A DNA stretch of 64,000 bases from a virus. Taxonomy: Duplodnaviria > Caudoviricetes. Below the pieces are notes generated by a model. That model saw nothing but the letters and a program-made list of their open reading frames with translations. It was not told the origin of the DNA and did not search any database. Where the stretch lies: positions 1-64,000 of IMG/VR virus record IMGVR_UViG_2882837327_000005. The stretch is one strand, 5' to 3'. Of the stretch, positions 7,782-38,278 are shown piece after piece (the first letter of the stretch is position 1; every line of letters begins with the position of its first letter). The translations under genes were made by a program, and so were the position numbers.

Positions 7782-7869
7782 GCTCCTTGCCGTGGCGATC
7801 GGCTGCTTCGTGGCTGGCTGGTGGTGCGGAGAGCGCTATCTGCGCCGCCGCCGGCGGTCGCGCCTATGA
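7774..7869 (+). CDS. 31-aa single-TM peptide (not in ORF track)
   Basis: MPELLAVAIGCFVAGWWCGERYLRRRRRSRL; GGAGG RBS; fills the operon gap. Confidence 0.55.
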   Translation: MPELLAVAIGCFVAGWWCGERYLRRRRRSRL

Positions 7870-16308: not shown

Positions 16309-16514
16309 CCCAATGCATGGGGGCTGAAACCCTTTCACCCCCTTCCACGTCACCCCCTTGCCGCCACCCCAGCGCTTACACCCTGTCACCGCCTGAAACC
16401 GACGATGGATCAATCGCGTAGCCCTGCCTGCAACACCTGACACCTCCAGGTGCAACACCACCTGTCACAGACCCTTGTCAGGGTGCCAGCGCCTTCGACC
16501 ATGCTGCCATCATC

Positions 16515-17354
16515 ATGCAGACGCCTCCGAAGATGACGCCCGAGGACTGGGAAGCGCTGATCGCGAAGCTGTTCGCGGAGCCCCAGGAAGGCGTGCCCCA
16601 GGCGACCATCAGCTCCCTGGCGCGGGAGTACGGGATCTCGCGCGCGCTCATCCATGGGCAGCTGAAGAAGCGGAACCTCACCTGGTCCATCGACAGGCAG
16701 GCGGCAAAGAAGGCGAGCCTGGATGAGGAGGCGCAGCACCGGGATCGGATAGCCCAGACCCCTGCCCCTCCCCCCCTTCCCGGCTACCGGCCGCCCGAGG
16801 CTATCCGCGCCCAGGGCGACGCGCTGCGTGAGACCCTCCCCGCCTCCCTGCGCCCTATCCTCGACGCGGCAGCCATCCGGCAGGTGGCGCTGGAGCGGCT
16901 GAAGGAGCGGAACGAGCGCATGGCCGGGCTGGCCGAGCGACTGGTGCATCTGGTGCAGGTGGCGCTGACCACCCCAAAGGACGACGACCAGGTGGGGTTG
17001 ACGAAGAAGATGCAGGCCCTGTCCACCCTGCTGCCAGGGAAGAATGACGGCATCCCGGCGATCGTCGCCTCCATCACCTCCCTGACCAACACGCTGCGGA
17101 TCTCGGAGGCCGGCGTGCTGCGCCTCGAGCTCGACGGGCTGAACGACCGCCATAAGTACGAGAGCGAGAGCGGCGCCCTGGATGGGCTCGGGGCCGAGGG
17201 AGACGACATCGACAGCCTCTCCACCGAGGAGAAGGCCCAGCTGCTGGACGCCATCAATATTCTCGAGGGGACAAGCCGCCGTGCCCCTATCCCCATGCCC
17301 CCGCGCCGTGTCATCGACGTGCGCCCCGATGAAGGAGAAGACGATGCTACCTGA
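16515..17354 (+). CDS. Terminase small subunit-like protein
   Basis: N-terminal HTH (TISSLAREYGISRALI..W), C-terminal DIDSLSTEEKAQL; directly upstream of the TerL genes. Confidence 0.65.
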   Translation: MQTPPKMTPEDWEALIAKLFAEPQEGVPQATISSLAREYGISRALIHGQLKKRNLTWSIDRQAAKKASLDEEAQHRDRIAQTPAPPPLPGYRPPEAIRAQGDALRETLPASLRPILDAAAIRQVALERLKERNERMAGLAERLVHLVQVALTTPKDDDQVGLTKKMQALSTLLPGKNDGIPAIVASITSLTNTLRISEAGVLRLELDGLNDRHKYESESGALDGLGAEGDDIDSLSTEEKAQLLDAINILEGTSRRAPIPMPPRRVIDVRPDEGEDDAT

Positions 17355-17958
17355 GCCGCCGGCCAAGGGGTCGCTGCAGCTGTTCGTGCGGGAGGCATGG
17401 CCGCAGGTGGTGGTGGCGCCGCTCGAGTGGGGCAACGTCCTCGAGAGCATGAGCGAGCAGATTGAGCAGGCTCTCCACGAGCCGGGTACGCCCTGCCTTA
17501 TCGCCTGCCCCACGGCGCGCTGTGGAAAGACCATGCTGATGAGCGTTCTGCTGCCGGCGTGGATCTGGACCTGGGCACCGGCCGCACGCCTGATGACCGT
17601 CGGCGTTTCCGAAAGGGCGGCTCATGCGGACGCCCGCCTCACCCGAGAGCTGCTGCGCAGCGTGTGGTACCGCCGGCGCTGGGGTGAGGGCATCGTTCCT
17701 TTCGCGACATCCAACTTGGCCTTCACCGAGAACAGGGCCGGCGGCTATCGCCGAGCGGTTGGTGTCCGGAGCGCCATAAGTGGCCTGCGTGTCGATGTGG
17801 CGATCGCAGATTGCATCTATCCTTTCGCCTACCCGGGCGCCGAGCGAGGGGAAGCGCGCGACCGCGTGGACACCTGGTGGCAGCAAGAAGCCCTGAAGCG
17901 GGTCGTCCCCGGCGGCCACATGCTGCGCGTCGAAGAAAGCATCCTCGCCACCGCATGA
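17344..17958 (+). CDS. Truncated paralogue of the TerL ATPase domain (no nuclease, degenerate Walker B)
   Basis: Collinear with the downstream TerL N-terminus: SLQLFVREAW/SFKAFVKMAW, SVLLPAWIWTW/SVLFVAWVWTW, SVWYRRRWG/SDWYQARWG. Confidence 0.75.
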   Translation: MLPEPPAKGSLQLFVREAWPQVVVAPLEWGNVLESMSEQIEQALHEPGTPCLIACPTARCGKTMLMSVLLPAWIWTWAPAARLMTVGVSERAAHADARLTRELLRSVWYRRRWGEGIVPFATSNLAFTENRAGGYRRAVGVRSAISGLRVDVAIADCIYPFAYPGAERGEARDRVDTWWQQEALKRVVPGGHMLRVEESILATA

Positions 17959-22807: not shown

Positions 22808-24553
22808 ATGGATAAGCAAGTCGGGCCGACCTCGGCGGTGCAGACCCGCAACAGCCCGTTGGCGGTGATGAGCAAGATCCCCTCGGGGTTCATCGCGGCC
22901 GCCACCCGTGGCCTGCGTTCCGTCTTCGGCCCCAACTCCACCATCCGCGATGCCCCGCAGAGGCCCGTCTCGGCGCCCCAGGCGGTCGAGCCGACCTTCG
23001 ATCAGCCCTATGCGTGGATGGACCCCGGCAAGCCGGTGCGGCCGATCCCGATGCCAAATAACGACCTGGTGGGCCTGCGCTTCGCCTACCAGCCTGGCGT
23101 CAACAACCTGCAGCAAGGCCGCTCCCTAGAAGGCGTCACCTTCGAGACGCTGCGCAATCTGGCCGAGAACTTCGACCTTCTCCGCCTGGCCATCCAGACC
23201 CGCAAGGACCAGCTGCGGAAGCTGGGATGGTCCATCCAGCCGAAGGTGAAGCCCGGTGAGCGCCGGCGCCCCGTCAAGGACGAGAAGCTGATCGCCCGCT
23301 GCACCGCGCTGCAGGAATGCATGCTGCGGCCGGATGGCGACCTGACATGGGACCAGTGGATCAGCGCCATCGCCGACGATGCTTTCGTCCTGGACGGCGT
23401 TTGCCTGTACCGCCGCCGGCATCCGGATGGCCGGCCCTACGCGCTCGAGATCATCGACCCGGCGACCATCCAGCCCCTTCTCGACGTCACGGGCCGGAAG
23501 CCCCTCCATCCCAGCCCGGCCTATGTCCAGATCCGCAATGGCACGGTCGTCAACCACTACACGCGCAACGAGCTGACCTATTGGGCGCGCAACGTCCGCA
23601 GCAACAAGATCTACGGCATGTCCGAGGTCGAGCAGGTGGTACGCACTGCCACGCTCGGCATTGCCCGCGTCACCAAGCAGGTGGGACACTACTCCGAGGG
23701 CAACATCCCGGACATGCTGCTGAGCACGCCGCAGAACTGGACGCCGCAGCAGATCAGGGATTTCCAGGGCATCTTCGACCAGCTGATGTCGATGCCAGGG
23801 TCAAAGCGGAGGGGCTGGTTCGTGCCCGCCGGCACCGGGCAGCCCATCATGCTGAACCAGGAGGCCCAGCTGTTCGGGCCCTTCGACGAGTGGCTCGCCC
23901 GCATCATCTGCTACGCCTTCAGCCTACCGCCCTTCCCCTTCGTCAAGGAAACGAACCGGGCCACGGCCGAGACTCAGTACGACGCCGCCATGGCCGAGGG
24001 CTTGGGTCCGTTCCTGACCGGCTTCAAGAACATCATGGATATCGAAATCCGGGAGTTCTGGGAGGAAGACGGCCTCGAGCTGGTGTGGGACGACAGCGAG
24101 AACCTCTCGGCCGCGGAGAAGACGGCGCGCGAGCAGTCGGACATGCGCTCGGGCATCATCTCCATCGACGACATCCGTGCTCAGCGCGGGCTCGACCCCG
24201 TGGGCCTGCCGCCCATGATCTTCGGCCTGGGGCCCATGGGGTTCATGACCTTGGATCAGGTGAAGCAGGCGATCGATGTCGGCACCAACCTGCCGCCGGC
24301 GCCAATGGCGTTCGACGCCGCCGCCGGTGACGATCCCCTGGCCGGGGCGCCACCGGAGCTGCTGGCGCAACTCGGAATCCAATCGCCAGCCGCCCCCGGG
24401 CAGGCAGGCGGCGCCGGGCCCGGTGGGCCAATGGGGAACGGGGCTGGCCCCCGAGGTCCGGCGCGATCCATGGGGGCGCTCGGCGCCGCGCTGTCCCGCA
24501 CCAAGCCGGTGCCAGGCGTGAGCGAGCTCCTGCAACGCGCCGGAGGGTATTGA
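22808..24553 (+). CDS. Portal protein
   Basis: LEIIDPATI, YVQI, KIYGMSEVEQ, ARIICYAFSLPP, NRATAE, SIDDIRAQRGLDP; follows terminase. Confidence 0.9.
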   Translation: MDKQVGPTSAVQTRNSPLAVMSKIPSGFIAAATRGLRSVFGPNSTIRDAPQRPVSAPQAVEPTFDQPYAWMDPGKPVRPIPMPNNDLVGLRFAYQPGVNNLQQGRSLEGVTFETLRNLAENFDLLRLAIQTRKDQLRKLGWSIQPKVKPGERRRPVKDEKLIARCTALQECMLRPDGDLTWDQWISAIADDAFVLDGVCLYRRRHPDGRPYALEIIDPATIQPLLDVTGRKPLHPSPAYVQIRNGTVVNHYTRNELTYWARNVRSNKIYGMSEVEQVVRTATLGIARVTKQVGHYSEGNIPDMLLSTPQNWTPQQIRDFQGIFDQLMSMPGSKRRGWFVPAGTGQPIMLNQEAQLFGPFDEWLARIICYAFSLPPFPFVKETNRATAETQYDAAMAEGLGPFLTGFKNIMDIEIREFWEEDGLELVWDDSENLSAAEKTAREQSDMRSGIISIDDIRAQRGLDPVGLPPMIFGLGPMGFMTLDQVKQAIDVGTNLPPAPMAFDAAAGDDPLAGAPPELLAQLGIQSPAAPGQAGGAGPGGPMGNGAGPRGPARSMGALGAALSRTKPVPGVSELLQRAGGY

Positions 24554-24555
24554 AC

Positions 24556-24768
24556 ATGGCGGCTTGTGCGCATCATTGGGTGCAGAGCTGGAAGCACTTC
24601 GACCATGCCCATCACCACGAGGAATGCAGCAGATGCGCCACCCGGCGCGTGCTGCGGCAGGCCGACACCAAGGTGATGTGGGACGTGACCTGGCTGGAGC
24701 GGCGCGGCGAACCCGAGCATCCGACTGCCGGCGATCCCATTGTCATCCGGCCGGGAGGCTTCGCATGA
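24556..24768 (+). CDS. Small Cys/His-rich protein
   Basis: CAHHW..CSRC; coupled. Confidence 0.55.
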   Translation: MAACAHHWVQSWKHFDHAHHHEECSRCATRRVLRQADTKVMWDVTWLERRGEPEHPTAGDPIVIRPGGFA

Positions 24769-26336
24769 GCCAGCTTTCTGAGGCCCAGATCGAACAGCGT
24801 CGCGAGGCTGCGAAAGCACGCTGGAGCCGTTACGGCAGGCAGGCACAACACGCGGCAATCGCAGGTGCCATCGGCGCGGGTGTAGCAGGACTGGCCTTTC
24901 GCCGACCCCGTCCCGCGCTTCTGGGTGCTGCACTTACAGCCGCCATCCCGGCTGGGCGCTTCCTTGCGCGAGAGATCTCAGGCGATCCCGACCTTGAAGG
25001 CGCGACGCTTTCCGACAAGCAGACCGCCTCCGTCCTGCGTGACTTTGGCGCCCGCACGATGCGCGAGCGCCTTATCGTCCGCGACAGAAGTGGCCGGGTG
25101 ACCATGGACAACTTGGGCGGCAAAGAAAGTGTCGCTGCGATCACCCTGCTGGATGTCGTGCGAGGCGAGAGCCGCCGCCCTGATTCCTCCGCATGGCACA
25201 ACCACCCCCATCCCGCCCTGCCATCGGCCACTGACTTGCTCTTCGGCCAGCGCGGCGTGGTGGTTCAGCCCGACGGAAGCACTGCACGCTTCAAGTGGGT
25301 TGGCGGCGATGTGTATCGCGACGGCTTGGGAGAGCTCAGCGACGTAGCCTCTGAAGTCCTCAAATTGTCGGGGGAGGCACAAGGCGCATTGCGGGAGAAA
25401 GCGGTGAAGGATTGGAGCCCGGCAGAGGTTGGGCAATACGCTCAGCGGTGGTCTAAGCATCTGGAGGGGCTCAAGCGCCGGAAGCTGATCGAACTTGAGA
25501 TCAGACCCTCGGCGCTGTCGAAACGCCAGGCGGGCCAGCCGCTTTCCGACGCCGAGCGCAATCAGCGCGTGGAGGCCGCCCGGGCCCGCTGGGCCAATGC
25601 CAGCACCCGGGGAGACGGCGAGGCCGCGCCCAAGAAGCCGTGGAGTGGCGAGCGCCTCGGCCTTGCGCGCGGCATGAAGGTGCAGGCCTCCACCACCCTC
25701 GCCCCTACTTGGCGCCACAACTATGACGGCAGCGAGTGGGGGCATGACGCGCCACCCGCCCAGGACGGCGGCAGGATGTACCAGGCGCTGTCCCGCCGCC
25801 CGCAGGTGCCGGACGGCATGAAGACCGAGGACTTCGTGGCCCTGGGCCGCTGGGCCTCGGCCACCAGCCGCGACATGCGTGACCGCATCGTGGCGGAGGG
25901 CGTGGACGGCGACCGGGCTCGTAAGAAGCTGAGCACCATCCCCGCCAGCCGCCGCAACGACGCCGAAGCCATCAAGATGGCCTTCAACCACGCCCGCATG
26001 CTGGCCCTGCACGATATCGGCCTGATCCGGGTGAAGGACTTCAAGCTGACGCCCGAGGCGAAGGAAAAGCTGCAGGGGCTCGAGCCATTCATGTGGCGCG
26101 CCCGCCGGCAGATCTCGAATCCGCTGCGCGAGCAGCACGCCGAGACCTGGGCCTCCATCCGCCGCCAGTACGGGGAGGCCTTCGCTGACGGCCGCACCCA
26201 CCGCGTGGCGACGCGCGGCGCAGCGGCGGGCGAGACCAAGCGACGCTTCGAGCGGCACAGCACCCTGGTTAAGGAGGCCCCTGCAGACTGGTGGGCCGGC
26301 TCCGGGCTCATCGTGCCGGTGGGCTGGGAGGCCTGA
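24765..26336 (+). CDS. Two-module head-associated protein with JAB/MPN-like domain
   Basis: E..HNHP..PSATD motif; two copies of the LS(E/D)AxxxQRxEAAxARW tag; Gly-zipper helix. Confidence 0.7.
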   Translation: MSQLSEAQIEQRREAAKARWSRYGRQAQHAAIAGAIGAGVAGLAFRRPRPALLGAALTAAIPAGRFLAREISGDPDLEGATLSDKQTASVLRDFGARTMRERLIVRDRSGRVTMDNLGGKESVAAITLLDVVRGESRRPDSSAWHNHPHPALPSATDLLFGQRGVVVQPDGSTARFKWVGGDVYRDGLGELSDVASEVLKLSGEAQGALREKAVKDWSPAEVGQYAQRWSKHLEGLKRRKLIELEIRPSALSKRQAGQPLSDAERNQRVEAARARWANASTRGDGEAAPKKPWSGERLGLARGMKVQASTTLAPTWRHNYDGSEWGHDAPPAQDGGRMYQALSRRPQVPDGMKTEDFVALGRWASATSRDMRDRIVAEGVDGDRARKKLSTIPASRRNDAEAIKMAFNHARMLALHDIGLIRVKDFKLTPEAKEKLQGLEPFMWRARRQISNPLREQHAETWASIRRQYGEAFADGRTHRVATRGAAAGETKRRFERHSTLVKEAPADWWAGSGLIVPVGWEA

Positions 26337-28528
26337 TGGAGAAGCGCGCGCCCGGGCTGCCCCTCTCGGAGGCGGAGCTGAAGCAGCGCCGCGAGGCCGC
26401 GCGTTCCCGGTGGGAGAAGGCGGCGGCCGGTGCTGGCGCGGTGACCGGGGCCGCGGCCGCCGGTGGCGCTGCGGCAGCCGTGGCCCGCATCGTGGAGCGC
26501 AGCCGCGCGGCCAAGGCCGTGCGACAGGGCAATGAGCGCGGCGCTCGGCAGGAGGCCTGGGGCAAGCGCCTGGGTGAGAAGGTCGAGGAACGCGGCCAGC
26601 GCCAGGCGGCACGTGCCCGCGCGGGGGACGTGGTGCCGAAGTACCGCGCCTTCCTCGAGCGGCGCAGCGCGGAGGCAGCCCGGGATCTCGCCACCCTGCG
26701 CGCTGGCGAGCGCCCTGTCCCGGGCTATCGCAACACCGCAGACCGGCTGGACCCGATCAAGAGCGTGGTGCAGGACGGGCGGAAGCTCACGCGCTTCGAG
26801 ATGGAGTTCGTCGATGACGGCGCGCCCCTGGGACCGGCCCAGCTGGATGACGCGCTTCAGGCGGCCCGGGAGCGCTGGCGCGGCACCATTGACCGCCTGA
26901 AGGCCACGCCCCGCAACAGGCGCGTGAAGGTGGAGGGGTTCGACCGCGCGGCGGCCCGCCCTCATGACCGGAAGATCAAAGCCACCGAGGGATGGGCCTC
27001 ATCACGTGGCCGGGCCACGCAGGCAGCCGCTGATGGCGCCAGCAGCCCGCGCGTGGAAGCCGCGAAGGCGATCCTGGACAGCCACCGAGAGGCCATGGCC
27101 GAGGGGCTCGCATCAAACGACACCATGAGCCGCCGGCAGAAGGTGGATCTGGGCCGGGCGCGGCGCGTCCTCCACGAGGTGGGCCAGTTGCCAGAGGGAG
27201 AACCCGTGCCCTCTGTCCGCGGCAAGAAGCGTGGCGTCCGGGTGGAGCCCACGCAGGGCGCTACGGTGCGCAGCCATACCCGCAAGGTGCCGCGCGCCTG
27301 GCCGGGAGCGGAGCTGAGCGCTTCCTGGCGGCGCGAGATGGGCGCCGATATCCGAGAGGGCACCGAATACGCGGCGGGCAACCTGCGCGCCCGTGTCGCC
27401 CAGCGCGCTGCCGCGAGCCGCGCCGCCGGCATTGGCCGGGCAAAGGCCATCCTGGCCCGGATGCCGGGCCGCGTGAGGGTCACTGGTGCTGCCGCAGGCG
27501 CGCTCGGCGCGGCGCTGGGCGGTTTCGCCGCGTGGCGCAAGGCCAATTCGGTGGAAAAACTGGCAAAGGCTGCCCCGCGCGGCACCACGGCGCTGGTCGG
27601 CAGCCTGGCCACCCGGCTGGCGAGCCTGTTCCGTGCCTGGGGCCAGGATCCTTCGACGGCGGATGCCAGCGCAGGAATCCAGGAGGCGCTGGAGCCCGCC
27701 GCCGATGTCTTCCGGCTGGCAGCCGAGAGCGTGCAGCCGAACATGGACGGCGACAGCACCCAGGCGCCCATGACCGGCGGCGACCCGCGCCGCACCATCG
27801 CCTTCAACTTCGACGCCCGGAATCCCCGCGTGGAGCAGTACCTGCGCGGGTACGAGCTGGATCTCATCCGGAACCTGACCGACCAGTCGCGGGAGGCGGT
27901 CCGCACCGCGCTGCGCCTGGGCGCTATGACAGGCGCCAGCATCCCCGAGCAGGCCCGGCTGGTGCGCCAGAGCATCGGCCTCGCGCCCGGCCAGGTCGCC
28001 TGGGTGCAGTCCTATCGGATGCAGCTGCGCGAGCTGAACCCCAATGCCCTGAACCGGAACCTCCGGGACGCCCGGTTCGACAGCACCCTGCGCCGCGCGA
28101 TCGCGGACGGCGCCCCCCTGAGCGAGGATCAGGTGGAGCGGATGGTAGACGCCTATTCCAGGCGCACGCTGGCCTACCGCGCCACCAGCATCGCTCGCAC
28201 CGAGGGGCTGCGCGCCGCGACGGAGGGCAGCCTTGCCCAGGTCAAGGCGATGCTGGAGAGCGACAGCACCCTCGATGTCGAGAAGACGTGGCTGGCCACG
28301 GAGGACGGGCGCACGCGCGATGAGCACGTGCACCTGAACGGCCAGAGCGTGACCGGCCTCGAAACTGCCTTCCTTGTGCGGAGCAGCGACGGCCAGATGC
28401 ACAGCATCCGATACCCGCGCGACCCGATGGCGCCCGCGCACCTCACCATCGGCTGCCGCTGCACCATGGGCTTCCGCCTGGTGCCGCGCGCCGATCTCCG
28501 CCGCCCCATGACCGCAGAGGCTGTGTGA
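26336..28528 (+). CDS. Minor head protein (MuF/SPP1 gp7-like C-domain) with long basic N-extension
   Basis: RATSIARTE, KTWLATEDGRTRDEH..LNGQ, IRYPRDP..IGCRC. Confidence 0.85.
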   Translation: MEKRAPGLPLSEAELKQRREAARSRWEKAAAGAGAVTGAAAAGGAAAAVARIVERSRAAKAVRQGNERGARQEAWGKRLGEKVEERGQRQAARARAGDVVPKYRAFLERRSAEAARDLATLRAGERPVPGYRNTADRLDPIKSVVQDGRKLTRFEMEFVDDGAPLGPAQLDDALQAARERWRGTIDRLKATPRNRRVKVEGFDRAAARPHDRKIKATEGWASSRGRATQAAADGASSPRVEAAKAILDSHREAMAEGLASNDTMSRRQKVDLGRARRVLHEVGQLPEGEPVPSVRGKKRGVRVEPTQGATVRSHTRKVPRAWPGAELSASWRREMGADIREGTEYAAGNLRARVAQRAAASRAAGIGRAKAILARMPGRVRVTGAAAGALGAALGGFAAWRKANSVEKLAKAAPRGTTALVGSLATRLASLFRAWGQDPSTADASAGIQEALEPAADVFRLAAESVQPNMDGDSTQAPMTGGDPRRTIAFNFDARNPRVEQYLRGYELDLIRNLTDQSREAVRTALRLGAMTGASIPEQARLVRQSIGLAPGQVAWVQSYRMQLRELNPNALNRNLRDARFDSTLRRAIADGAPLSEDQVERMVDAYSRRTLAYRATSIARTEGLRAATEGSLAQVKAMLESDSTLDVEKTWLATEDGRTRDEHVHLNGQSVTGLETAFLVRSSDGQMHSIRYPRDPMAPAHLTIGCRCTMGFRLVPRADLRRPMTAEAV

Positions 28529-28749
28529 TGCCGAAGGAATTGACGACGCCGCGCATGAGCATCCGCCTCATGCAGGCAGATCACGGGATCCAGCAGTTCC
28601 AGCTGAAGATCGACATCGCGACCCTGGACGTGATCCAGGACCGCAATGAGGTCATCCGGCTGGCGAAGGAAGGCGTGGCCTCGCTGCTGCAGCAGATGGT
28701 GTGGCGGGTGCCGCTGGAGGGTGAGCAGCTCGAGGCGGCTGTTCCCTAA
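28528..28749 (+). CDS. Small hypothetical protein
   Basis: TGATG coupling. Confidence 0.6.
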   Translation: MPKELTTPRMSIRLMQADHGIQQFQLKIDIATLDVIQDRNEVIRLAKEGVASLLQQMVWRVPLEGEQLEAAVP

Positions 28750-28843
28750 GTCGCGCGACGATCCGGCAAGATAGCCCTTCGCAGACCGTTTGCGCTTTCT
28801 GAAAACCCGCGACCATGACGGTGGAAGTCAGTCGGGGGCTTCC

Positions 28844-29569
28844 ATGCTGAACTTCAGCGCCGAGGAAATCGCAGGCATCGAGGCGGCCATCACCGCGTAC
28901 CGGGAAGGCCCGGAGCGCGATGCGGCCATGACGAATGCCTACCGCCAGGTGGAGGCCGCCGGCCGCCGCTGGAACTCGGGGGAGCCCATTGTGCCACCCG
29001 AGGGCTGCACGCCGCTGGCCAAGGCCTGCTTCGCCGCCGTGGATGCGTTGGCGAAGCGGGAGGCGATGGAGAAGGCGGTGAAGGCCGGAGAGGCGACCGT
29101 CGACGAGACGAGGGCAGCCCGGCGCCTGAAGCCGCTGGGCGCAGCGCTGAGCAAGATGGCGCCGGCGGCGTCGGCGGATGTCGCACCGGCTCACCCCAAA
29201 GTCGCGCAACAGCCGAACCACCAGAAGGCCATCGCCGCCCTGCCCCTCGCCCAGCGCGCCCATGCCGAGCAACTCGCGAAGGCCGGCCAGGAAGAGGAGC
29301 TGCAGAAGTTCCTGGGCCTGGCCCGGGTGGCCCTGCCCCCCATTGTCCGCGCCGGCACCCGCGTCGCCACCAACCTCCTGCGCGCCTCGGCCACCGTGGC
29401 CCCAGGCGCCGCCGCGAAGCCGACTGGCCTGGCCAGCGCTGCGAAGAAGGTCAGCGGCTGGACGGCATGGCGGTCGAAGCAGCCGAGCGCCAAGAGCGCA
29501 GGCGTCATGGGCGCGAAGCCGCGCGCCCCCAGTCTCGGCGTGGCCGCCCAGCCCGCAACCCAGAAGTAA
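28844..29569 (+). CDS. Basic Ala/Lys-rich head-associated protein with many LxK motifs
   Basis: PLAKA, ALAKR, MEKA, LSKM, LAKA, LQKF; lies behind a late-promoter motif. Confidence 0.65.
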   Translation: MLNFSAEEIAGIEAAITAYREGPERDAAMTNAYRQVEAAGRRWNSGEPIVPPEGCTPLAKACFAAVDALAKREAMEKAVKAGEATVDETRAARRLKPLGAALSKMAPAASADVAPAHPKVAQQPNHQKAIAALPLAQRAHAEQLAKAGQEEELQKFLGLARVALPPIVRAGTRVATNLLRASATVAPGAAAKPTGLASAAKKVSGWTAWRSKQPSAKSAGVMGAKPRAPSLGVAAQPATQK

Positions 29570-29580
29570 GGGAGACCATC

Positions 29581-30219
29581 ATGCTGCTGAGCCTGCTGAA
29601 GGTGGATGAGGAGCGCAGGCTGGTTTACGCCCGCGCCGCCACCTCCGAACCCGACCGTTCCGGCGAGATGCTGGACTATGCCACCGCCAAGCCCGCCTTC
29701 GAGGAATGGTCGCGCGGCATCGAGGAGGCCTCGGGCGGCCTGTCGAAAGGCAACCTCCGCGTCCAGCACGATCCCAAGAGCGTCGCCGGCAAGATCGTGG
29801 ACATGAGCTTCGACGACGCCAACGAGGCCGTCGATGTGGTCTGCAAGGTCGTGTCGGACGAGGCCTGGAAGATGTGCCTCGAGGGCTGCTTCACCGGTCT
29901 GTCCATCGGAGGCGGCTACGCCAGGAAGTGGAAGGACGAGAGCACCGGCCTGACGAAGTACACGCCGCGCCTCACCGAGATCTCGCTGGTCGACAACCCC
30001 TGCATCCCCGGCGCCCGCATCATCCGGCTGGAGAAGGCCGACGGCGCAGTGGCCGACCTGCTGCTGAAGGGCCGCGCGCGGTCGTTCGACGAGATCCTGC
30101 CGCTGCCCGCCTTCCGCAGTTTCGAGGAGGTGCTGAAGGCCGCCCCGCGCCCCCGCACCTTCGAGGATGTCCTCCGGAAGGGCGGCACCGCTATCTGCGC
30201 GGCGAGGCCGCTGCACTGA
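29581..30219 (+). CDS. Prohead serine protease (XkdF-like)
   Basis: KVDEERRLVY, DRSGE, LRVQH, FTGLSIGG, LTEISLVDNPCIPGA. Confidence 0.85.
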   Translation: MLLSLLKVDEERRLVYARAATSEPDRSGEMLDYATAKPAFEEWSRGIEEASGGLSKGNLRVQHDPKSVAGKIVDMSFDDANEAVDVVCKVVSDEAWKMCLEGCFTGLSIGGGYARKWKDESTGLTKYTPRLTEISLVDNPCIPGARIIRLEKADGAVADLLLKGRARSFDEILPLPAFRSFEEVLKAAPRPRTFEDVLRKGGTAICAARPLH

Positions 30220-30398
30220 TGCCGGTCTTCGAGCGCAAGTCCCCGGCGCCACCGGCCACCGATCCCGGCCAGGCCTTCGTGGTCCAGACCCTGGCCAAGG
30301 TCGCGGCCGGGCAGAACCTACCCCGCCTGGCGCCCACCCCTGCCGCGCTCAACAGCGCCTTCCGTAACCCGCTGGTGATCCCCCCGGAGGAAACCTGA
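30219..30398 (+). CDS. Small Pro-rich protein
   Basis: TGATG coupling at both ends; TLAKV motif. Confidence 0.55.
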   Translation: MPVFERKSPAPPATDPGQAFVVQTLAKVAAGQNLPRLAPTPAALNSAFRNPLVIPPEET

Positions 30399-33300
30399 TG
30401 GCGCGTTGCCGCTGGACCCCAGAGCTGATTGGCGACCTGCGCATGCGGGTAATGCGCCACAACCAGACGCCCGGCACCCAGAAGGTGCGCCTCGAGGAGC
30501 TGAAGAAGGCCTTCGCCGCGCGCGCCAGGGGTGCGGAGCCCATGGCGGCCGGGATGAAGGCGGTGGATCGCCTGCTGCTGGCCAAGGCGGACGACGATCA
30601 GCCCCGTGAGTCCAACGGCCGCTTCGCGCGCAGTGGTGCTCCCGACATGTCCGGCCAGGGCCGGTTCTATCGGGATGTCGCCACGCCCTTCCAGCATCGG
30701 CAGCTGCGTGAGCAGAACGCCGGCTATGAGGCGGCCAACCAGACCGTCATCCCCGAGACGCGCTATGGCCAGTTCCTTCCTGGCGCGCTGGCGGCAGCGT
30801 CGCTGGCGAGTGCCGCGGTCGATGGCGCCACCGCCAAGTTCGGCCGCAAGCCGAAGCTGAACCTGCCGAACAGCCTGGATGCGCTGCGCCTGGCGGCCCG
30901 TGCTGCGACCCTCGGCCGCGAGAACATTGCCAGCAAGGGGCTGAAGCAGGCCTCCCGCGCCTATAACGCCCTGTATGAAGACGGGGCCCTGGTGCCGGCA
31001 AAGCTTGTTCGGCGCTATTCAGACAAGAAGGTAGCGCGGATCGCGGCCCAGCCTACCAAGACCGCTGCCGAGCGCTTTCTCCGCTCCAGCAAGATCCTCC
31101 GCACCAAGATCGGGGGCCGCGTGGGCGCGGCGCTGACGGCCGCCGCCTTCCCTGGCGCCATCTTCGCCCCTCTCGCCTACGGCACCGGCCAGGCTATCGG
31201 CCCCGCCATCGACAGCGCGGTGGGCGGCCGCACCGTGAACAAGGCCAACACCGTGGAAGATCTCGCCAAGCGCTGGAAGCTTGCCAGCCTGACCGGCGCC
31301 GCGCGCCGCGCCCTGACCGGCTTCTCCCCCAGCGCCTCGCCCCTGGTGCAGGCGCGGCAGGCCATCAGCGGCCCCGCCGGCATCGCCGCGAACCGCGTAA
31401 AGCGCCACAACCTCGGCACCTTCGGGCGCGTGGGCACCCAGGCCGCTGCCGCCGCTGCTGGTGCCGGTGCCGCCGGCACGGCCGCCTGGGCTGCGGCCAG
31501 CCTCGGCCCACGCGTGTTCTACCGCGACGAGGACGGCAAATTCACCTCGAAGGAGAAGGCCGTCATCACTGGCGTCGCGGGTGTCGCTGGTGCTGCTGCT
31601 GGCCTGCTGGCAGGCCGCCGCGCCGTGGGCAATTTCGCCCGGGAGGCCCAGCGCCGCGCCACCGCCGCATTCGAGGCGCCGGCCACCGGGAAGGTGAAGA
31701 GTTCGGACGGCGTGTTCGACGCCATGCGCACCCGACTGGAGGGTGTGGACCGCCGCGCGGCCACCGGTCGAGGCACGCCGACGCCCGAGCAGGCTGCCGC
31801 CGCCAACCGCGCGCTGGACAGCGGAGCCGGGGATCGCCGCAACCTGTCCGACATGCTGGCCGCGCGCATGGAGGCCCGGACCAAGGGCGCCACCATGACC
31901 CGAGCCGAGGCGATCGAGGCGCGCAGCGCGTCGGGTGAGCTGGCGCGGCTGTATGGCAGCAAGGCCAACCGCACGCGGCGCCAAGCCGCGATCGCGGCGG
32001 CAACCAAGCCCATCGAGGCGCTGACGGTCGCCGCGCGCCAGGGCCCCGCCGCATGGGGCGCGAAGGCGCTGGACGATGTCGAGCGCAGCCAGATCGAGGG
32101 GCTGATGCGCCTGCCGGCGCGCGGGAAGCCCAGCTGGTGGGATGGTGTCGACAACCCGCGTGATGTGCGCCGGGCCTTCTTCGACACATGGAACAGCACC
32201 GGCAGCCTGGACCAAGCCATCGGCAAGCTGCCTAAGGCGAAGCAGGGCGACCTCAAGGCCATCCGCAGCGCCGTGGACGAGGAGCGCACCGCGTTCGCAG
32301 GCCGGGTGACGGCCTGGGAGACGCAGCGCGTCTCTGCGATCGAGGGCGCCGACAAGGCGGTTGCCAAGGTTCGCGAGCTGGCTGCGAAGAAGACCAAGGC
32401 CGCGAAGGCCCTGGACGACCTGAACGCCATCGATGCCGCCACCCACAAGACGAAGGCGGCGCGCGCAGCGCACGCCGACGCCATCACCGCCGCCGAGAAT
32501 GAGCTGGTGCGCGCCGACAAGGCGCTGGCGGGGGCCAAGGAGGCCAGCGCGCGCGCCGAGCGCACCGCGAACCACGCGTCCCGCCTCGACCCGGCCGGCG
32601 GCGGCTTCCACAGCGCCCTGGCCGAGGCCAGCGACGAGGTGCGCGACGCGCTGCGCCCCCGCAACCCCTTCAAGCAGGGCAGCTTCCTCGAGGGGCTGCC
32701 CTCCCCAGCCCGGCTGAAGGAGCTGCGCGACGACGCCACGAAGCGCGCGCTGCTGGCGGAGAACACCCGCCTGGTGGACGAGGCCATGAAGCGCGGCGCC
32801 CGGGTGCGCCAGCTGGTGGACGATGTCGCCACCGAGACCGCCCGAATCAGCGGCACCCGCACCAGCGGCCCTGTGCAGCGGCAGGTGGAGGCAGTGGCGG
32901 CCCGCATCGCTCCCTACATGGAGAGCATGCAGCGCGACGTGCGCATGCTGCGCGGCGGCGCCAGCGCCTATGTGAATCGCCTCCTGGGCGATGGCCCGGC
33001 CAATTGGGGCACCGCCGCGCGCAACGCCCGCGCCAAGGTGGAGCGCTGGGTGCTGGGGCAGCAGGTCAAAGGCCCGACGGGCACGACGACGCGCGAAGGC
33101 GGCGCCTGGAACTGGGCAAAGCGCAACAAGGGCGCCATTCTGACCGCCGGTGCAGCCGCCGGCGTGCTGGACTACTCGGCCGATGGCCGTGTGAACCTCA
33201 ACTGGCGTGGCCTGGGCCGCTTCCGGGATGACCCGCTCTCCGCCGCCGACAGCGCGCGCAAGAACACGGGTGCCTTCTTCCGGATCTACAACCCGGGCGC

Positions 33301-35035
33301 CGCCAACGAGGCGGTGCTGACGGGCATCACCCTGAAGGGCAAGGACGGCAAGGAGACCTTCGTCACCGGGCGCATCACGCGCGCCGATGGCAGCGAGATC
33401 CCGATCACCACCGGCGCCGCCGTGGACGACATCACCCGCCAGTTCAATCGCGGCCCCTCCGGAGACGGCGGAGGCGGTGGCGGTGGCAATGCCGGCGGCG
33501 AGGGTGGAGCCGCGGCGCGCGCCAGCGCCCTGTTCGGGAAGCTGAAGTCCGGCGACGCCGTGAAGCGCGAGGAGATCGGCGGCGAGACCTTCCAGCATAC
33601 CGGGGGGCAGAACACCCTCTCGAAGGACGACGCCCGCACGCTCATGGCGACCCGGGACCAGTTCAAGACCTCGATGGAGCGGGTAGCCGAGAAGATCGGC
33701 AACAATGTCGGCGCCCATGCCGGCGACTTCTACCGCGCCCTGGGCCAGCTCATGGGTGAGCCGGGCCGGATCCTGACCATCAATCAGATGCGCCAGGCGC
33801 TGGTGGGCGATAAGGGGCTGTTCGGCACGGGCAGCCGCCTGAACGACAACCTCGACGCCAAGGCGCTGCAGGACAAGCTGAGCGGGCTCGCCGGCACCCT
33901 GCCTGCGCCCCAGGACGCAGAGCAGGCCAAGGCCCTGCGCCGCGCCATGCGGCTGCTGGGCGGCAAGGCCTCCCAGAAGGGGCAGGTCAGCAACTACAGC
34001 AGCATCGACAGCATCATCGATCGCCGCATGAGCAAGAGCGCACCGGGCACGCCTCCTGCAACACACGCCCCTGCCCCGAGCCCGCGCACCCACGGCGAGC
34101 TTGATGACGAGACCCTCTCGCGCCTCGAGGCGGATCTCCGCCCCCGGTACAGGAATGAGTTGTCGCGGCGCGGCGCGTCCTCGCGCGGGGGCCGCCCTGA
34201 TGCCGATACCGAGCGGCTCATGGCCTACAACGACCGCCTGACCGAGGAAGCGGCGACGCTGTTCAACAGCTTCCGCGACGAGCTGCGCGGCACCCACAGC
34301 GCGGCCGAGGCGCGCCGACTGGCGGCTGAGCAGACCTGGAGCGTGATGACGGCCAGCCTGCCGAACCGCCCCACGAAGAACCCCTTCGCCAAGGCGGCGG
34401 GCGGGCCACTGGCCAAGGCCCTGGACGAGGCTCGCGCCGCCGCGCCGCGCCGCTTCGATGAGGCGAAGATCAGCCGCCACGGCAAGGGCGACGGTCAGGG
34501 GGGCGAGTTCGCCCCGCGCGGCGGCGGGCGTGCGGCCCGTGAGGAGGCCGACGCAGGCCCGCAGCGCCGCCCTGCGCCCGGCGCCCCGCCGGCCAAGGAC
34601 GAGCGCGGCTACTTCGAGCCTGTGCGCCTGGGCGCCACGGTCGGCGGCACGGTCGGCAGTCAGGCGGCCTGGGAGCTGTTCAACCGCTACGCCCCCAAGG
34701 GCATCAAGCTGGGCGGCACCGCTGGCCGCTTCGTGCTGGGCATGCTGGCCAGCGTGGCGGGTGGCGTGGGTGGCGCGGCAGCGGGCGAGGCCGCTGGCAG
34801 GAAGACCTATGACGCCCGGGGCGAGAAGGCACCGGGCTCCTACGAGCAGCCGCAGCGGGACGGCGCCGAGGAAGTCGGCCGGGGTATCGGCGGGTTCCTG
34901 GGCGGCTTCGCCGGCCTTGCCACTGCCAGCGTGCCCGGGGCCATCGCCCTCGGCACCGCAGGCAGCCTGGCCGGTGAGGAGCTGTTCGGCCGCGCCGCGA
35001 AGATCGCCCGCGAGAGATTCGGAGTGGAGCTGTGA
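30398..35035 (+). CDS. 1545-aa modular head-associated polyprotein (putative internal or ejected cargo)
   Basis: Between protease and scaffold; LxK sites, three R-x-G(R/K/E)F tags, several Gly-zipper helices, coiled coil. Confidence 0.75.
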   Translation: MARCRWTPELIGDLRMRVMRHNQTPGTQKVRLEELKKAFAARARGAEPMAAGMKAVDRLLLAKADDDQPRESNGRFARSGAPDMSGQGRFYRDVATPFQHRQLREQNAGYEAANQTVIPETRYGQFLPGALAAASLASAAVDGATAKFGRKPKLNLPNSLDALRLAARAATLGRENIASKGLKQASRAYNALYEDGALVPAKLVRRYSDKKVARIAAQPTKTAAERFLRSSKILRTKIGGRVGAALTAAAFPGAIFAPLAYGTGQAIGPAIDSAVGGRTVNKANTVEDLAKRWKLASLTGAARRALTGFSPSASPLVQARQAISGPAGIAANRVKRHNLGTFGRVGTQAAAAAAGAGAAGTAAWAAASLGPRVFYRDEDGKFTSKEKAVITGVAGVAGAAAGLLAGRRAVGNFAREAQRRATAAFEAPATGKVKSSDGVFDAMRTRLEGVDRRAATGRGTPTPEQAAAANRALDSGAGDRRNLSDMLAARMEARTKGATMTRAEAIEARSASGELARLYGSKANRTRRQAAIAAATKPIEALTVAARQGPAAWGAKALDDVERSQIEGLMRLPARGKPSWWDGVDNPRDVRRAFFDTWNSTGSLDQAIGKLPKAKQGDLKAIRSAVDEERTAFAGRVTAWETQRVSAIEGADKAVAKVRELAAKKTKAAKALDDLNAIDAATHKTKAARAAHADAITAAENELVRADKALAGAKEASARAERTANHASRLDPAGGGFHSALAEASDEVRDALRPRNPFKQGSFLEGLPSPARLKELRDDATKRALLAENTRLVDEAMKRGARVRQLVDDVATETARISGTRTSGPVQRQVEAVAARIAPYMESMQRDVRMLRGGASAYVNRLLGDGPANWGTAARNARAKVERWVLGQQVKGPTGTTTREGGAWNWAKRNKGAILTAGAAAGVLDYSADGRVNLNWRGLGRFRDDPLSAADSARKNTGAFFRIYNPGAANEAVLTGITLKGKDGKETFVTGRITRADGSEIPITTGAAVDDITRQFNRGPSGDGGGGGGGNAGGEGGAAARASALFGKLKSGDAVKREEIGGETFQHTGGQNTLSKDDARTLMATRDQFKTSMERVAEKIGNNVGAHAGDFYRALGQLMGEPGRILTINQMRQALVGDKGLFGTGSRLNDNLDAKALQDKLSGLAGTLPAPQDAEQAKALRRAMRLLGGKASQKGQVSNYSSIDSIIDRRMSKSAPGTPPATHAPAPSPRTHGELDDETLSRLEADLRPRYRNELSRRGASSRGGRPDADTERLMAYNDRLTEEAATLFNSFRDELRGTHSAAEARRLAAEQTWSVMTASLPNRPTKNPFAKAAGGPLAKALDEARAAAPRRFDEAKISRHGKGDGQGGEFAPRGGGRAAREEADAGPQRRPAPGAPPAKDERGYFEPVRLGATVGGTVGSQAAWELFNRYAPKGIKLGGTAGRFVLGMLASVAGGVGGAAAGEAAGRKTYDARGEKAPGSYEQPQRDGAEEVGRGIGGFLGGFAGLATASVPGAIALGTAGSLAGEELFGRAAKIARERFGVEL

Positions 35036-35202
35036 CCTTCACGCAATCCGCCGGGGCCTTCTCCGGCCTCACCGCCACTGACCTCGCAGTGCCCGCCACA
35101 CGGGCACTTGCCAGGAAGAGGCGTCTTTCAACCATGCTGGCAAGGCTCGCGGCGCTGAAGCGGCAATCGGGGCAGAGCGCCCTTCGGAAAGAGGACAGAC
35201 AC

Positions 35203-36585
35203 ATGAACTTCCAGACCCTGATCGGTGCGCTGAAGACGAGCGCGAGCGAGATCGTCGCGAGCGGCGCCACCGATGCCGCCGACCAGCTGGCCAAGAGCAT
35301 CGACCAGTTCGCCGGCCGCGCCGCCGGCCTGGTGGTCTCGCCCCCCGAGCAGACCGACCATGTCGGCACCCTGGGCCGCACCTTCGACGAGATGGTGAAG
35401 GCGGTGGGTGTGGTCGAGGACGGCGGCTACGTCCTGATGAAGGGCGGCGCGAAGCCGGATGACGGCAAGATGGAGCTGCTGAAGTGCGGCCTGAACATCG
35501 CGGGCGTGGCGCTGAACCTCATGGCCGCCGAGCAGGCCGCGCCGGCGGGCAGCGAGGACGAAGCCCGCAGCGAGGGCCTGGGCCTGTTCAAGGTGGCCTT
35601 CGATGGTGGTGAGCAGCTGCTGAAGCACTCCCTGGCCGAGGACGGCATGCGCTGGCTGCGCGATCCGGTCGAGGCGACCCAGGAGGGTCAGGACGAGGCG
35701 CTGGCCGCGCTGGCGCTGCTGGGCGTCGATACCGACCGCCTGCTGAAGGCCTTCGAAGAGGCCGAGGGTGGGGATGGCGGTGGTGAACCGGGCGGCGGCG
35801 AAGGTGCTGGCGATGGCGCTGGCGAGGGTGAAGGTGCCGCCGAGGGCGGTGGCGACGACAACCCCATCATGAACATGGCCCGCATGGGCGTGGCCACCAT
35901 GACCACGGCCGGTGCGGTGCTGGAGGCCGGTGGCCAGGAGCTGCCGGAGGATGTCCAGCAGATGCTTTCCCAGATCGCCGAAGCCGGCGCGCTGATCACG
36001 ACTCACGCCGACCACCTGGCCCAGCTGCATGCGGCCGAGGAAGGCGAGGACGAGGGTGAGGGTGAGGACAGCGAACTCGAGCCCGAGGATGGTGCGGGTG
36101 AGGGCGAGGACGAGGGCGCACCCACTGGCGAGAAGGAACCGCCCGCCAAGGGTGATGAAGGCGACGGCGACAAGCCCGGCGCCGAGGCCGACGCCAAGCC
36201 CGGGTCCGCGCCGCCCACCGGCAAGGAGGGAGACGAGGGCAAGAAGAAGCCCAAGGCCCGCGAGCCCGAAATGGCCCTGGCGGCCAAGACCGGCGAACTG
36301 GCGAAAACGGCCGCCGCCTTCCTGGCCAAGGCCCGCCCGGCTGCAGCCCCCGCGCCCGCCCCTGCCCCTGTGCTCCAGGCGCCGCCTGTCCTGCCGGCGA
36401 ATGCGCCCGCTGCCCGGGTCGTGCCTGTCTCCAAGGCGGCCGATGGCGGTGGTGAGCCGCTGGCGAAGACGGCCAACGAAAAGACGCTGGAGGAGCTGGC
36501 GAAGATGTCGCCCACCGAACGTGAGCGCGCCGCGGTCTTCCTGGCACTCCGGGCCCCGCCGATCGAGCTGCCCGCCGCGAATTAA
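35203..36585 (+). CDS. Capsid scaffolding protein (acidic, low complexity)
   Basis: Directly before the capsid gene; Glu/Gly-rich; more than 10 (L/V/M)xK motifs; GAGGA RBS. Confidence 0.7.
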   Translation: MNFQTLIGALKTSASEIVASGATDAADQLAKSIDQFAGRAAGLVVSPPEQTDHVGTLGRTFDEMVKAVGVVEDGGYVLMKGGAKPDDGKMELLKCGLNIAGVALNLMAAEQAAPAGSEDEARSEGLGLFKVAFDGGEQLLKHSLAEDGMRWLRDPVEATQEGQDEALAALALLGVDTDRLLKAFEEAEGGDGGGEPGGGEGAGDGAGEGEGAAEGGGDDNPIMNMARMGVATMTTAGAVLEAGGQELPEDVQQMLSQIAEAGALITTHADHLAQLHAAEEGEDEGEGEDSELEPEDGAGEGEDEGAPTGEKEPPAKGDEGDGDKPGAEADAKPGSAPPTGKEGDEGKKKPKAREPEMALAAKTGELAKTAAAFLAKARPAAAPAPAPAPVLQAPPVLPANAPAARVVPVSKAADGGGEPLAKTANEKTLEELAKMSPTERERAAVFLALRAPPIELPAAN

Positions 36586-36772
36586 ATCTCATTTCGCGGT
36601 CTGATTTCCTCTAGACCGCGTGCTGATACTCTGAAATGCCCTAGGTAGCAGATGGCTCCTGGGGCATTTTCGCATCCGGTGTCGTGGCCCTTGCGGCCAG
36701 CTTACGTCCCGTATTCCACGCCTAGGGACGAGGCGGCGTTGGCCCCCCGAGGGGGCTCGAGCGTCATCGGAA

Positions 36773-38278
36773 ATGAATCCCAATCAGATCTCCGCAGAAG
36801 CGATGGACGCTCTGCGCGAAGCCCTGTCCAAGGCGGCCACGGGCGACAACCTGCAGAAGACCTTCGTCCAGAGCGGCAACCAGCTCACGGGCCTGACGGC
36901 CTTCAGCCTGGAAGCCCCGGCGAAGCTGTTCTACCCGAAGCTGACCCCCATCCGGAACCGCCTGCCGCGCGTCGGCGGCGGCACCGGCATCCAGGCGAAC
37001 TGGCGTGCCATCACCGGGGTCAACACCGGCCGTGCCTCCATCGGCGTGTCCGAAGGCAACCGCGGTCAGATCCAGGCCGTGTCGGTCAAGGAGTACATGG
37101 CCTCCTTCCGCACGCTGGGCATCGACAGCTACGTGACGGCCGAGGCGCAGCGCGCCGCCAACGGGTTCGATGACCCCGAGGCCCGCGCGGTGCAGTCCAA
37201 CCTGAATGCCCTGATGATCGGCGAGGAGCGCGTGCTGCTCGGCGGCCTGGGCACCTGGGGCCTGGGTCAGCCGGTCGGTCTGGCGATCGCGCAGACGACG
37301 GGCGGCAACATCGCCAACACCACGGTCGTCAATGTGCGCGTCTGCGCGCTTACCCTCGAGGGCTACAACCGCGCCAAGGCGGGTGAAGTCGTGGCGCTGC
37401 TGACCCGCACCACGGGCAATGGCGCGACCGACACCTTCGGCGGCGGCTTCTCGATGGCCTCGGCCGCGGTGAACCTGACCGCCAGCGCGGGCAGCACGCT
37501 GGTCAGCGCCAGCTGCACGCCCGTGAAGGGCGCCGTGGCCTACGCCTGGTTCATGGGCGCCAACGCCTCGACCATGTACCTCATGGACGTGACGACCAAC
37601 AGCGCGACGAAGCTGCTGAACTTCCCGGCCGGCACCGAGCCCGCCCTGCCCGCGGACCTGCTGACCAACGACCGCAGCCAGAACCAGCTGGTCCACGACG
37701 GCTACTTCGGCCTGGTGGCGGCGAGCGGCAGCGGTGCCTACTGGTACACGATGCCGAACGGCGCCGGCGGCCTGGGCACGCCTCTGACCTCCGATGGTGC
37801 CGGTGGCATCAAGGAGATCGACGCGGTGCTGCTGTGGTACTGGAACACGCATCGCATGAGCCCCACGCGCATGCTGGTGAGTGGCCGGGAGCTGAACAGC
37901 TTCCGTACCCTGGGCCTGCTGGGCACCAGTTCCAGCACGCAGCGCTTCACCTGGAACAGCGACCAGCGCGGGGTCCTGCTGAGCGCCAAGGTGCGCGGCT
38001 ACACGAATCCGTTCGCCATGGGCGGGTCCGAGGAGGTCGCGATCGAGCTGCACCCGGACGTGCCCCCGGGCACCATCCTGTTCGAGACGGACAGTCTTCC
38101 GTATGAACTGCCGGGCGTCGATCAGTTGAATCGCGTCCTGTGCCGCGCGGACTACCACCAGATCGTGTATCCGCAGATTACGCGCCGGAAAGATTTCGGC
38201 GTGTACACGGATCAGGTTCTGCAGTGCTACTTCCCGCCTGCGCAGGCCGTGCTGACCAACATCGGCGCGCCCACCTAA
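36773..38278 (+). CDS. Major capsid protein
   Basis: Position, strong codon bias, PKLTPIRNRLPRV, EERVLLGG; downstream terminator. Confidence 0.85.
   Translation: MNPNQISAEAMDALREALSKAATGDNLQKTFVQSGNQLTGLTAFSLEAPAKLFYPKLTPIRNRLPRVGGGTGIQANWRAITGVNTGRASIGVSEGNRGQIQAVSVKEYMASFRTLGIDSYVTAEAQRAANGFDDPEARAVQSNLNALMIGEERVLLGGLGTWGLGQPVGLAIAQTTGGNIANTTVVNVRVCALTLEGYNRAKAGEVVALLTRTTGNGATDTFGGGFSMASAAVNLTASAGSTLVSASCTPVKGAVAYAWFMGANASTMYLMDVTTNSATKLLNFPAGTEPALPADLLTNDRSQNQLVHDGYFGLVAASGSGAYWYTMPNGAGGLGTPLTSDGAGGIKEIDAVLLWYWNTHRMSPTRMLVSGRELNSFRTLGLLGTSSSTQRFTWNSDQRGVLLSAKVRGYTNPFAMGGSEEVAIELHPDVPPGTILFETDSLPYELPGVDQLNRVLCRADYHQIVYPQITRRKDFGVYTDQVLQCYFPPAQAVLTNIGAPT

Follow-up and report, generated by a model that had tools for sequence, protein, structure and literature searches.

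We analyzed the head gene module in a 64,000-nucleotide stretch of a virus (Duplodnaviria; Caudoviricetes), positions 1 to 64,000 of IMG/VR record IMGVR_UViG_2882837327_000005. This stretch, here called the window, comes from a prophage within a genome of 5.28 Mb and 68% G+C. Its head module encodes extra proteins between portal and scaffold, which, judging from their sequences, are probably cut by the prohead protease at L-x-K joints and packed in the capsid as pieces that carry a short peptide tag. A first-pass annotation of the window had described them as polyproteins processed by such a protease into packaged, possibly effector, products. The protease, the conserved sites and the modular build of this description were recovered, whereas the payloads of the window matched no effector family. 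Below, a slash within a motif marks the predicted cut, and loci and proteins of relatives carry L and P numbers.

The L-x-K signal and the prohead protease

Frequencies of the motif [LVM]xK[ASTR] were compared between the head proteins and all other proteins of the window, with composition-matched expectations and window-40 shuffles as controls. Head proteins contained 26 sites versus 11.3 expected from composition (2.3-fold, P=1.3e-4), and the remaining proteins were at background level (24 versus 19.0, P=0.15), showing that the motif is enriched in the head proteins only. Each tetrapeptide listed in the first-pass annotation was found at its place. Taken singly, only two proteins of the window reached significance, the scaffold-like protein with 7 strict sites versus 1.5 expected (P<0.002 by shuffling) and the Ala/Lys-rich protein g259 with 4 versus 1.1; the 1545-aa (amino acid) protein (7 versus 4.2), the MuF protein (3 versus 1.6) and the 523-aa protein (1 versus 1.3) did not. 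The scaffold had been credited with more than 10 sites, which is too many: the same pattern gives 7, or 9 if F/I are allowed at P3 and G/M at P1', and with 12 L-x-K in all the number 10 is exceeded only without a rule for P1'.

The signal is stronger across six syntenic phages. Here, [LVM].K[AST] occurred 137 times in head proteins versus 53.6 expected and 11 times in tail proteins versus 14.3, and control motifs (reversed, K to R, K to E, Leu at P4, acidic P1') gave ratios of 0.98-1.07. Enrichment was highest in the scaffold (6.6x; 45 sites versus 6.8 expected in the six orthologues), followed by the capsid protein (3.7x), other head proteins (1.9x) and the 1545-aa family (1.7x); the MuF class showed 1.8x, which is not significant. 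In the wider protease-capsid family, 49 of 50 distinct capsid N-termini carried [LVMIF].K[ASTGN] no more than 22 aa away from the conserved N-arm (GL..Y.L), with Leu at P3 in 44, a variable P2 and Ser or Ala at P1'. The motif was also enriched 3.4x in the scaffold parts of 67 protease-scaffold fusions and reached 0.76x in open reading frames (ORFs) downstream of the capsid gene.

Site positions are conserved as well. Between scaffold homologues of about 30% identity four to five sites could be aligned, the capsid L-x-K-[TAS] was aligned in 7/7 sequences, and the LAK/A junction ahead of the MuF domain was kept in 7/8 orthologues. The nine sequences of the 1545-aa family showed conserved L-x-K clusters at aa 63, 282 and 289; the same test gave no cluster for four control motifs and one for LxE. 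At the first cluster L60, L61 and K63 are invariant in eight sequences, and VNK/A at aa 280 and LAK/R at aa 289 are conserved in 6-8 of the nine. The MSKS at aa 1211, which had also been listed as a site, is present and not conserved. Conservation in homologues, proposed earlier as a check, was thus found in the capsid, the scaffold, the 1545-aa protein and the MuF junction, where L-x-K is supported in silico as a signal that is under selection and keeps its position.

Head proteins are Ala-rich (14-24%) and contain more Lys than tail proteins, and the motif could on these grounds be a by-product of Ala/Lys/Leu-rich helices, the tag being a chance repeat. We give this explanation a negligible probability. 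It is already contradicted by the motif controls (composition-matched expectations, shuffles and control motifs gave no excess), by the alignment of sites across homologues of such low identity and by a profile of the tag, which found 40 proteins at E<=1e-10 in a set of 1.84e9.

The enzyme that would read this signal is encoded at 29578..30219 (+) and matches the PHROGs family phrog_9427 'head maturation protease' (2.8e-11). Two residues, His64 (in QHDPK; 29767-29769) and Ser109 (in GLSIGG; 29902-29904), are invariant in six orthologues and lie at positions that we take to be close to His65 and Ser114 of HK97 gp4. An AlphaFold2 (AF2) model with a core pLDDT (predicted local distance difference test) of about 83 had T4 gp21 (5jbl) as its best PDB match in Foldseek (E 1.8e-4, prob 1.0), and herpesvirus assemblins, the proteases of human cytomegalovirus (HCMV), Kaposi's sarcoma-associated herpesvirus (KSHV) and pseudorabies virus (PrV), came next. 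The protein of the window had no Pfam match at E<=0.01; its orthologue in L004, 60% identical, scored 25.4 bits on PF04586 Peptidase_S78 (cut-off 21), the orthologue in L005 scored 17.7 bits on PF14550 S78_2 (XkdF), below the cut-off of 24, and two tag-bearing relatives matched PF14550 at up to 2e-18. A protease profile run against PDB sequences gave chance matches to proteinase K only. The assignment as a prohead serine protease is supported in silico by the modelled fold, the His/Ser pair and the gene position.

This protease is predicted to cut the capsid protein and the scaffold after L-x-K, a proposal well supported by the conserved sites. In the capsid protein (36773..38278, +; phrog_13692, 4e-95; 41% identity to the Polewnik capsid) the candidate maturation site is LQK/T (36851-36862), and a weaker one is LSK/A (36824-36835). 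Cleavage at LQK/T would free the capsid protein of about 30 N-terminal residues. The scaffold-like protein (35032..36585, +), which is motif-rich, has no family match and has orthologues in six loci, would be chopped at at least seven sites. HK97 gp4, a protease of the S78 type, cuts gp5 at K103/S104, before the N-arm (PMC10275583), and the predicted capsid cut resembles this one in P1 Lys, in Ser/Ala at P1' and in the position just ahead of the N-arm. The two systems differ: in HK97 a scaffold domain of 103 residues is part of the capsid protein and there is no cargo, and the phage of the window has a propeptide of about 30 aa and a separate scaffold. A literature search found no description of prohead proteases cutting 'after lysine'.

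The LEKA listed earlier, after the protease, was considered as a self-cleavage site and was rejected as firm evidence, because its KADG element is shared by the whole family with variable P3 and lies in a predicted strand; the site may be structural. In the window and in L003 the protease is a separate protein, and in L004, L005 and L007 it is fused to tag and zipper modules. Three R(S/T)F(D/E)E(V/I)L repeats are found in the protease tail (30070-30180) and are retained in each of the six orthologues. The final repeat leads directly into an L-x-K/R tag1 joint in L004, L005, L007 and L008 (e.g. FEEVMLAK/R), and a similar string, RTFDEMVK/A, is found in the scaffold. The repeat could serve for docking or belong to a longer cut site.

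Tagged modules between portal and scaffold

The head genes of the window are all on the + strand, and 10.5 kb lie between portal end and scaffold start. In the related Brevundimonas phage Polewnik the stretch from portal to capsid consists of a portal-MuF fusion and one 593-aa protease-scaffold gene, and of 80 metagenomic phages whose protease is related, about 70 show this simple layout. The earlier statement that about 10 kb of extra genes are present here is therefore correct. The expanded head module characterizes a small clade (loci L003-L007, L008-L015 and L091).

A 20-residue tag, tag1, with the consensus LxK/R..G.PLSEAE..QRR.AA.ARW, often followed by a Gly/Ala zipper, occurs three times in the window. 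Its copies lie at 24762-24824, 25533-25592 and 26351-26413, and none was found elsewhere in six frames. About 30 copies occur in the six loci and L008-L015; in the protease family tag1 was found in the expanded clade (L008-L015) only and was absent from about 70 simple loci. L-x-K-R precedes every internal copy in the viral loci and 8/10 in the six syntenic loci. A 45-position profile of tag1 was searched against 1.84 billion protein cluster representatives and matched 131 proteins at E<=1e-3, with 170 copies in total. Internal copies had an L-x-K at most 12 residues upstream in 79/98 cases, the joints had Leu at P3 in 92/126 and Arg at P1' in 83/126, and an uncharged Gly/Ala-rich run followed 93/164 copies. 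In these proteins L-x-K-R occurred 87 times at tag leaders and elsewhere 37 times versus 66.5 expected (0.56x). In silico evidence supports the proposed build of site, tag, Gly zipper and payload as real, portable and widespread, with tag1 in 131 protein clusters, mostly of MuF head proteins.

A second tag, tag2, resembles FDESKHPRD..GRFA and follows LAK/A in the 1545-aa family. It recurs within the 1545-aa protein at about aa 380 and aa 1369, and placed after L-x-K it heads kinase payloads in five tag1 proteins versus 0.15 expected. Uncharged Gly/Ala runs are concentrated in the MuF and 1545-aa proteins, with 6 runs versus 2 in 14.8 thousand aa of other proteins, and the zippers of relatives gave sub-threshold matches to Gly-zipper families.

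The first cargo gene, at 24765..26336 (+), encodes the 523-aa protein, which matches no Pfam or PHROGs family and is built from two units. The first consists of tag1 (24762-24824), a Gly-rich hydrophobic stretch and module 1 (24945-25520), and the second of LSK/R (25515-25526), tag1 (25533-25592) and module 2 (25596-26333). The hidden Markov model (HMM) of the tag scored 36.0 and 39.3 bits on the two copies. Module 2 is the commonest payload without a known family, with about 18 homologues among tag-bearing proteins and a conserved NHAR.LALHD.GL motif. Its AF2 core has a pLDDT >90 over about 165 residues, and its fold was matched neither in PDB, where Foldseek gave E>=0.7 and VIA a best Z of 5.4, the level of helical bundles, nor in BFVD. 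Module 1 has one homologue among tag-bearing proteins (P0033, 38% over 190 aa) and no Pfam match at E<=5, and its ESM Atlas model had a pLDDT of 0.49 and a TM (template modelling) score of about 0.3 to MuF-like models. It contains an HNHP....PS..D string, which a first reading had called JAB/MPN-like; this assignment is neither supported nor excluded.

The gene ends where the MuF gene begins (26336..28528, +; 730 aa; PF04233 6e-9, phrog_3517 5e-57 on aa 461-729). The MuF protein starts with MEK/R (26336-26347), tag1 (26351-26413) and a Gly/Ala zipper (26420-26485), followed by a payload of about 330 aa, a second zipper (27479-27535), LAK/A (27560-27571) and the MuF domain (about 27716-28522). 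PF04233 spans aa 584-711, behind an N-terminal extension of 460 aa, and the gene stands among the head genes, close to those of portal and protease. In P0021 and P0017 the arrangement is the same within one chain, in which module 2 of the 523-aa protein is followed by L-x-K and tag1. Identical joints are therefore internal in some phages and gene boundaries in others, the pattern expected if the modules act as separate proteins after cutting.

The third cargo gene, g259, is Ala/Lys-rich and lies at 28844..29569 (ORF 28790-29569, +), with M19 as the probable start by homology. Its sites are LAKA, LAKR, MEKA, LSKM and LAKA, and an FLKT lies upstream of M19. The homologues in L003 and L004 are longer and made of repeated LAK/-led zipper modules. 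In the one of L004 (6526-8238) a whole module, LAK/[AG]EDGAPKKRRSLVGQ followed by a Gly zipper, about 150 aa and YVGK/R, is duplicated in tandem, which illustrates growth by module duplication.

The largest cargo protein, of 1545 aa (30398..35035, +), has no family match and eight homologues, all syntenic. It begins with a conserved 63-aa leader ending in LAK/A (30578-30589) and tag2 (about 30590-30628), continues with VNK/A (31235-31246), LAK/R (31262-31273) and a zipper / YRDEDGKFT / zipper arrangement (31442-31615), and carries FAK/A and LAK/A (34385-34420), a tag2-like GGEFAP element (about 34445-34513) and further zippers (34730-34933) in its C-terminal part. The family was not found in phage isolates, in viral contigs searched with peptide patterns or in two scans of genome contigs, and 200 genomes of the order gave one distant match. 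Even at E<=5, neither Pfam nor PHROGs gave a match to the 523-aa protein, the N-terminal part of the MuF protein, g259 or the 1545-aa protein, which was scanned in three slices, and the ESM Atlas gave no usable match for the 523-aa or the 1545-aa protein.

Relatives carry recognizable payloads behind the same tag. Among the 131 tag1 proteins, Pfam assigned Phage_Mu_F to 53, InPase to 9, Intein_splicing to 7, AAA_33 / zeta-toxin kinase (P-loop) to 5, Sigma-70 r2/r4 to 4 and prohead protease to 3, and Ferritin, KTSC, UvrB_inter and DUF7831 to 1-2 each. In worked examples tag1 stood exactly at domain borders, as in tag1, sigma-70, LAK/R tag1 with zipper, MuF. A complete sigma-70 (regions 2 and 4) was found behind tag1 at the N-terminus of MuF polyproteins in L091 (5536-8250), P0011, P0020 and P0024, and the L091 gene lies in a head module of the same order as that of the window. 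This arrangement suggests that some phages may package a sigma factor and bring it in with the DNA; MuF-sigma fusions did not turn up in a literature search.

Proposed processing and packaging, and competing explanations

According to the proposed mechanism, the head module of a siphophage-type prophage would have acquired some 8-10 kb of 'cargo' genes, which follow a modular code and whose products lie inside the virion. The prohead serine protease, of the HK97 gp4 / T4 gp21 / assemblin fold class, would cut after Lys in L-x-K and thereby process the 523-aa, MuF, g259 and 1545-aa proteins at their conserved joints, most of which are composite, with L-x-K followed by tag1 or tag2, often a Gly/Ala-zipper helix, and then the payload. 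The tags would most likely be loading or recognition peptides that hold the pieces on the scaffold, the capsid interior, portal/MuF or the DNA. The pieces would stay in the DNA-filled head and exit together with the DNA. We infer the cuts themselves, the packaging and ejection of the cargo and the function of the tags in loading; that the zippers insert into membranes and that the payloads of the window act as effectors is speculative. We tentatively entertain a broader version, in which the portable cut-and-tag cassette, L-x-K/ and a leader tag with or without a Gly zipper, could be a general, clade-wide code that passes any payload, even complete sigma factors, kinases and pyrophosphatases, to the prohead protease and the inside of the capsid for delivery with the DNA, and the 1545-aa and zipper pieces could form a delivered, membrane- or DNA-associated ejection apparatus of a siphophage.

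Several observations weigh against processing and delivery of the cargo. The cargo proteins show no significant motif enrichment in the window alone, and the six syntenic phages are related, so that the counts across them are not independent. P1' is Arg at the tag joints and Ser/Ala in capsid and scaffold, and the tag would stay on the product, whereas the T4 targeting sequence is removed; a retained tag might act in loading, as a protease exosite or as a helix that binds DNA. N-terminal copies of tag1 retain L-x-K-R in 47/66 cases, where no cut is needed, and L-x-K-R is therefore possibly part of a binding epitope. The zippers are moderately hydrophobic at most (Kyte-Doolittle 1.1-1.8). The payloads of the window match no known family in Pfam or PHROGs, which also gave no enzyme or effector domain in its tagged proteins, and module 2 has no fold match in PDB or BFVD.

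Part of these data would also fit a situation in which only the capsid propeptide, the scaffold and the protease are cut, the extra proteins remain uncut in association with head or portal, and L-x-K-R-x-x-G-x-P is the start of a peptide that binds portal, scaffold or DNA. The Arg at P1', the leaders kept at N-terminal tags and the lack of single significance of cargo proteins are in line with this, and the strongest statistics indeed come from scaffold and capsid. The joints, however, share the signature of P3 Leu and P1 Lys with a variable P2, L-x-K-R is depleted elsewhere in the tag proteins, L-x-K/A without a tag is conserved at the MuF junction and in the 1545-aa protein, and joints that are internal in some phages are gene boundaries in others. 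We consider uncut cargo rather unlikely.

A structural role was weighed for the 1545-aa protein and the zipper pieces, which might build a core or body inside the head or act as an additional scaffold, for instance to enlarge the head or to organise the DNA, and after cleavage be expelled or remain inert and not be delivered as effectors. The gene for the 1545-aa protein has the protease gene on one side and the scaffold gene, to which it is translationally coupled, on the other, its product has no enzyme-like family, and T4 and phiKZ-type heads possess such cores (PMC10052503, PMC7697877). The phages of the clade are moreover on contigs of 93-105 kb versus 62 kb for Polewnik, but these contigs need not equal whole genomes, and the capsid protein has the same size in small and large relatives. 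The same tags also head InPase, kinase and sigma-70 payloads in relatives, and we regard a purely structural role as improbable.

Cut and tagged cargo, the reading that we favour, would work like known systems. In T4, short N-terminal peptides load unrelated internal proteins into the prohead, gp21 cuts at the three-residue code L/I-x-E and the products remain in the head and are injected (PMC9024508 citing Mullaney and Black; PMC9026906). In the 1545-aa protein, the 63-aa leader ending in LAK/A has the layout of a targeting sequence, like those of IPI-III and Alt. In contrast to T4, the predicted cut is after Lys and not after Glu, tag1 and tag2 are C-terminal to the cut and would be kept on the product, and the modules are chained into polyproteins of up to 1.5 thousand aa, often with a Gly zipper, in a siphophage-type head with a separate scaffold. 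In giant phages (phiKZ gp175, SPN3US gp245, 201phi2-1) a single prohead protease recognizes a short consensus in many proteins of the head, among them inner-body and ejection proteins, and cuts there, with loss of propeptides (PMC10052503, PMC5694885); these differ in that the consensus ends in Glu, the phages are myoviruses of >200 kb and no shared portable tag has been reported. The Dar system of P1 loads large anti-defence proteins into the head by an N-terminal signal that is able to carry a reporter (DarB; PMC9024508). The Dar proteins have no consensus tag (PMC9024508), whereas here one consensus tag heads many unrelated modules.

The proteins would belong to the MuF-type polyvalent proteins, multi-domain proteins with MuF, InPase or zeta-kinase domains encoded among virion genes, for which packaging and injection are predicted (Iyer et al., 2017, PMC5512222). 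The tag-bearing relatives carry exactly these domains, and by Pfam the payloads of the window fall into none of the families in that paper. Processing is ascribed there to MPTase and other built-in peptidases, and a word search of the text gave no 'linker', no 'sigma' and no prohead-protease site or joint tag. If cuts and packaging are true, the L-x-K sites would explain the disassembly of such proteins, which the founding paper ascribes to built-in peptidases. A three-residue code and a 20-residue tag would then predict capsid-travelling phage proteins from sequence alone, and the tag would offer a ready handle for loading foreign proteins into a siphophage head, like the targeting sequences of T4 and P1.

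Neighbouring genes and scaffold start

The portal gene (22808..24553, +; PF04860 5e-13, phrog_2662 1e-52) contains no motif site, and the 74-aa ORF at 28525..28749 (+) has neither motif nor family match. Tag-bearing genes lie directly 3' of the portal gene in a different phage type too, the Baseplate_J type, where a tag-bearing protein of 1596 aa follows it immediately.

The scaffold-like protein begins with a mimic of the capsid N-arm (35035-35097), followed by a basic linker, a core from M58 (35203), an acidic Gly/Glu region and a LAK-rich C-terminal region. The start of its ORF mimics the mature capsid N-arm in all six loci (L003 about 14785, L006 about 6474); in the window (35032-35100) the mimic reads TFTQSAGAFSGLTATDLAVP and the capsid TFVQSGNQLTGLTAFSLEAP. 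In the window, L003, L004 and L006 the scaffold start codon shares bases with the stop codon of the 1545-aa gene (ATGA/GTGA), and in L005 and L007 the scaffold ORF starts 80-130 nt downstream of this stop.

In L003 an IS605 OrfB/TnpB gene (16261-17457, minus strand) is located between scaffold and capsid, and in L005 a GIY-YIG/NUMOD3 homing-endonuclease-like gene (7510-8424) lies amid the cargo genes. Mobile elements are thus present within the head modules of these relatives.

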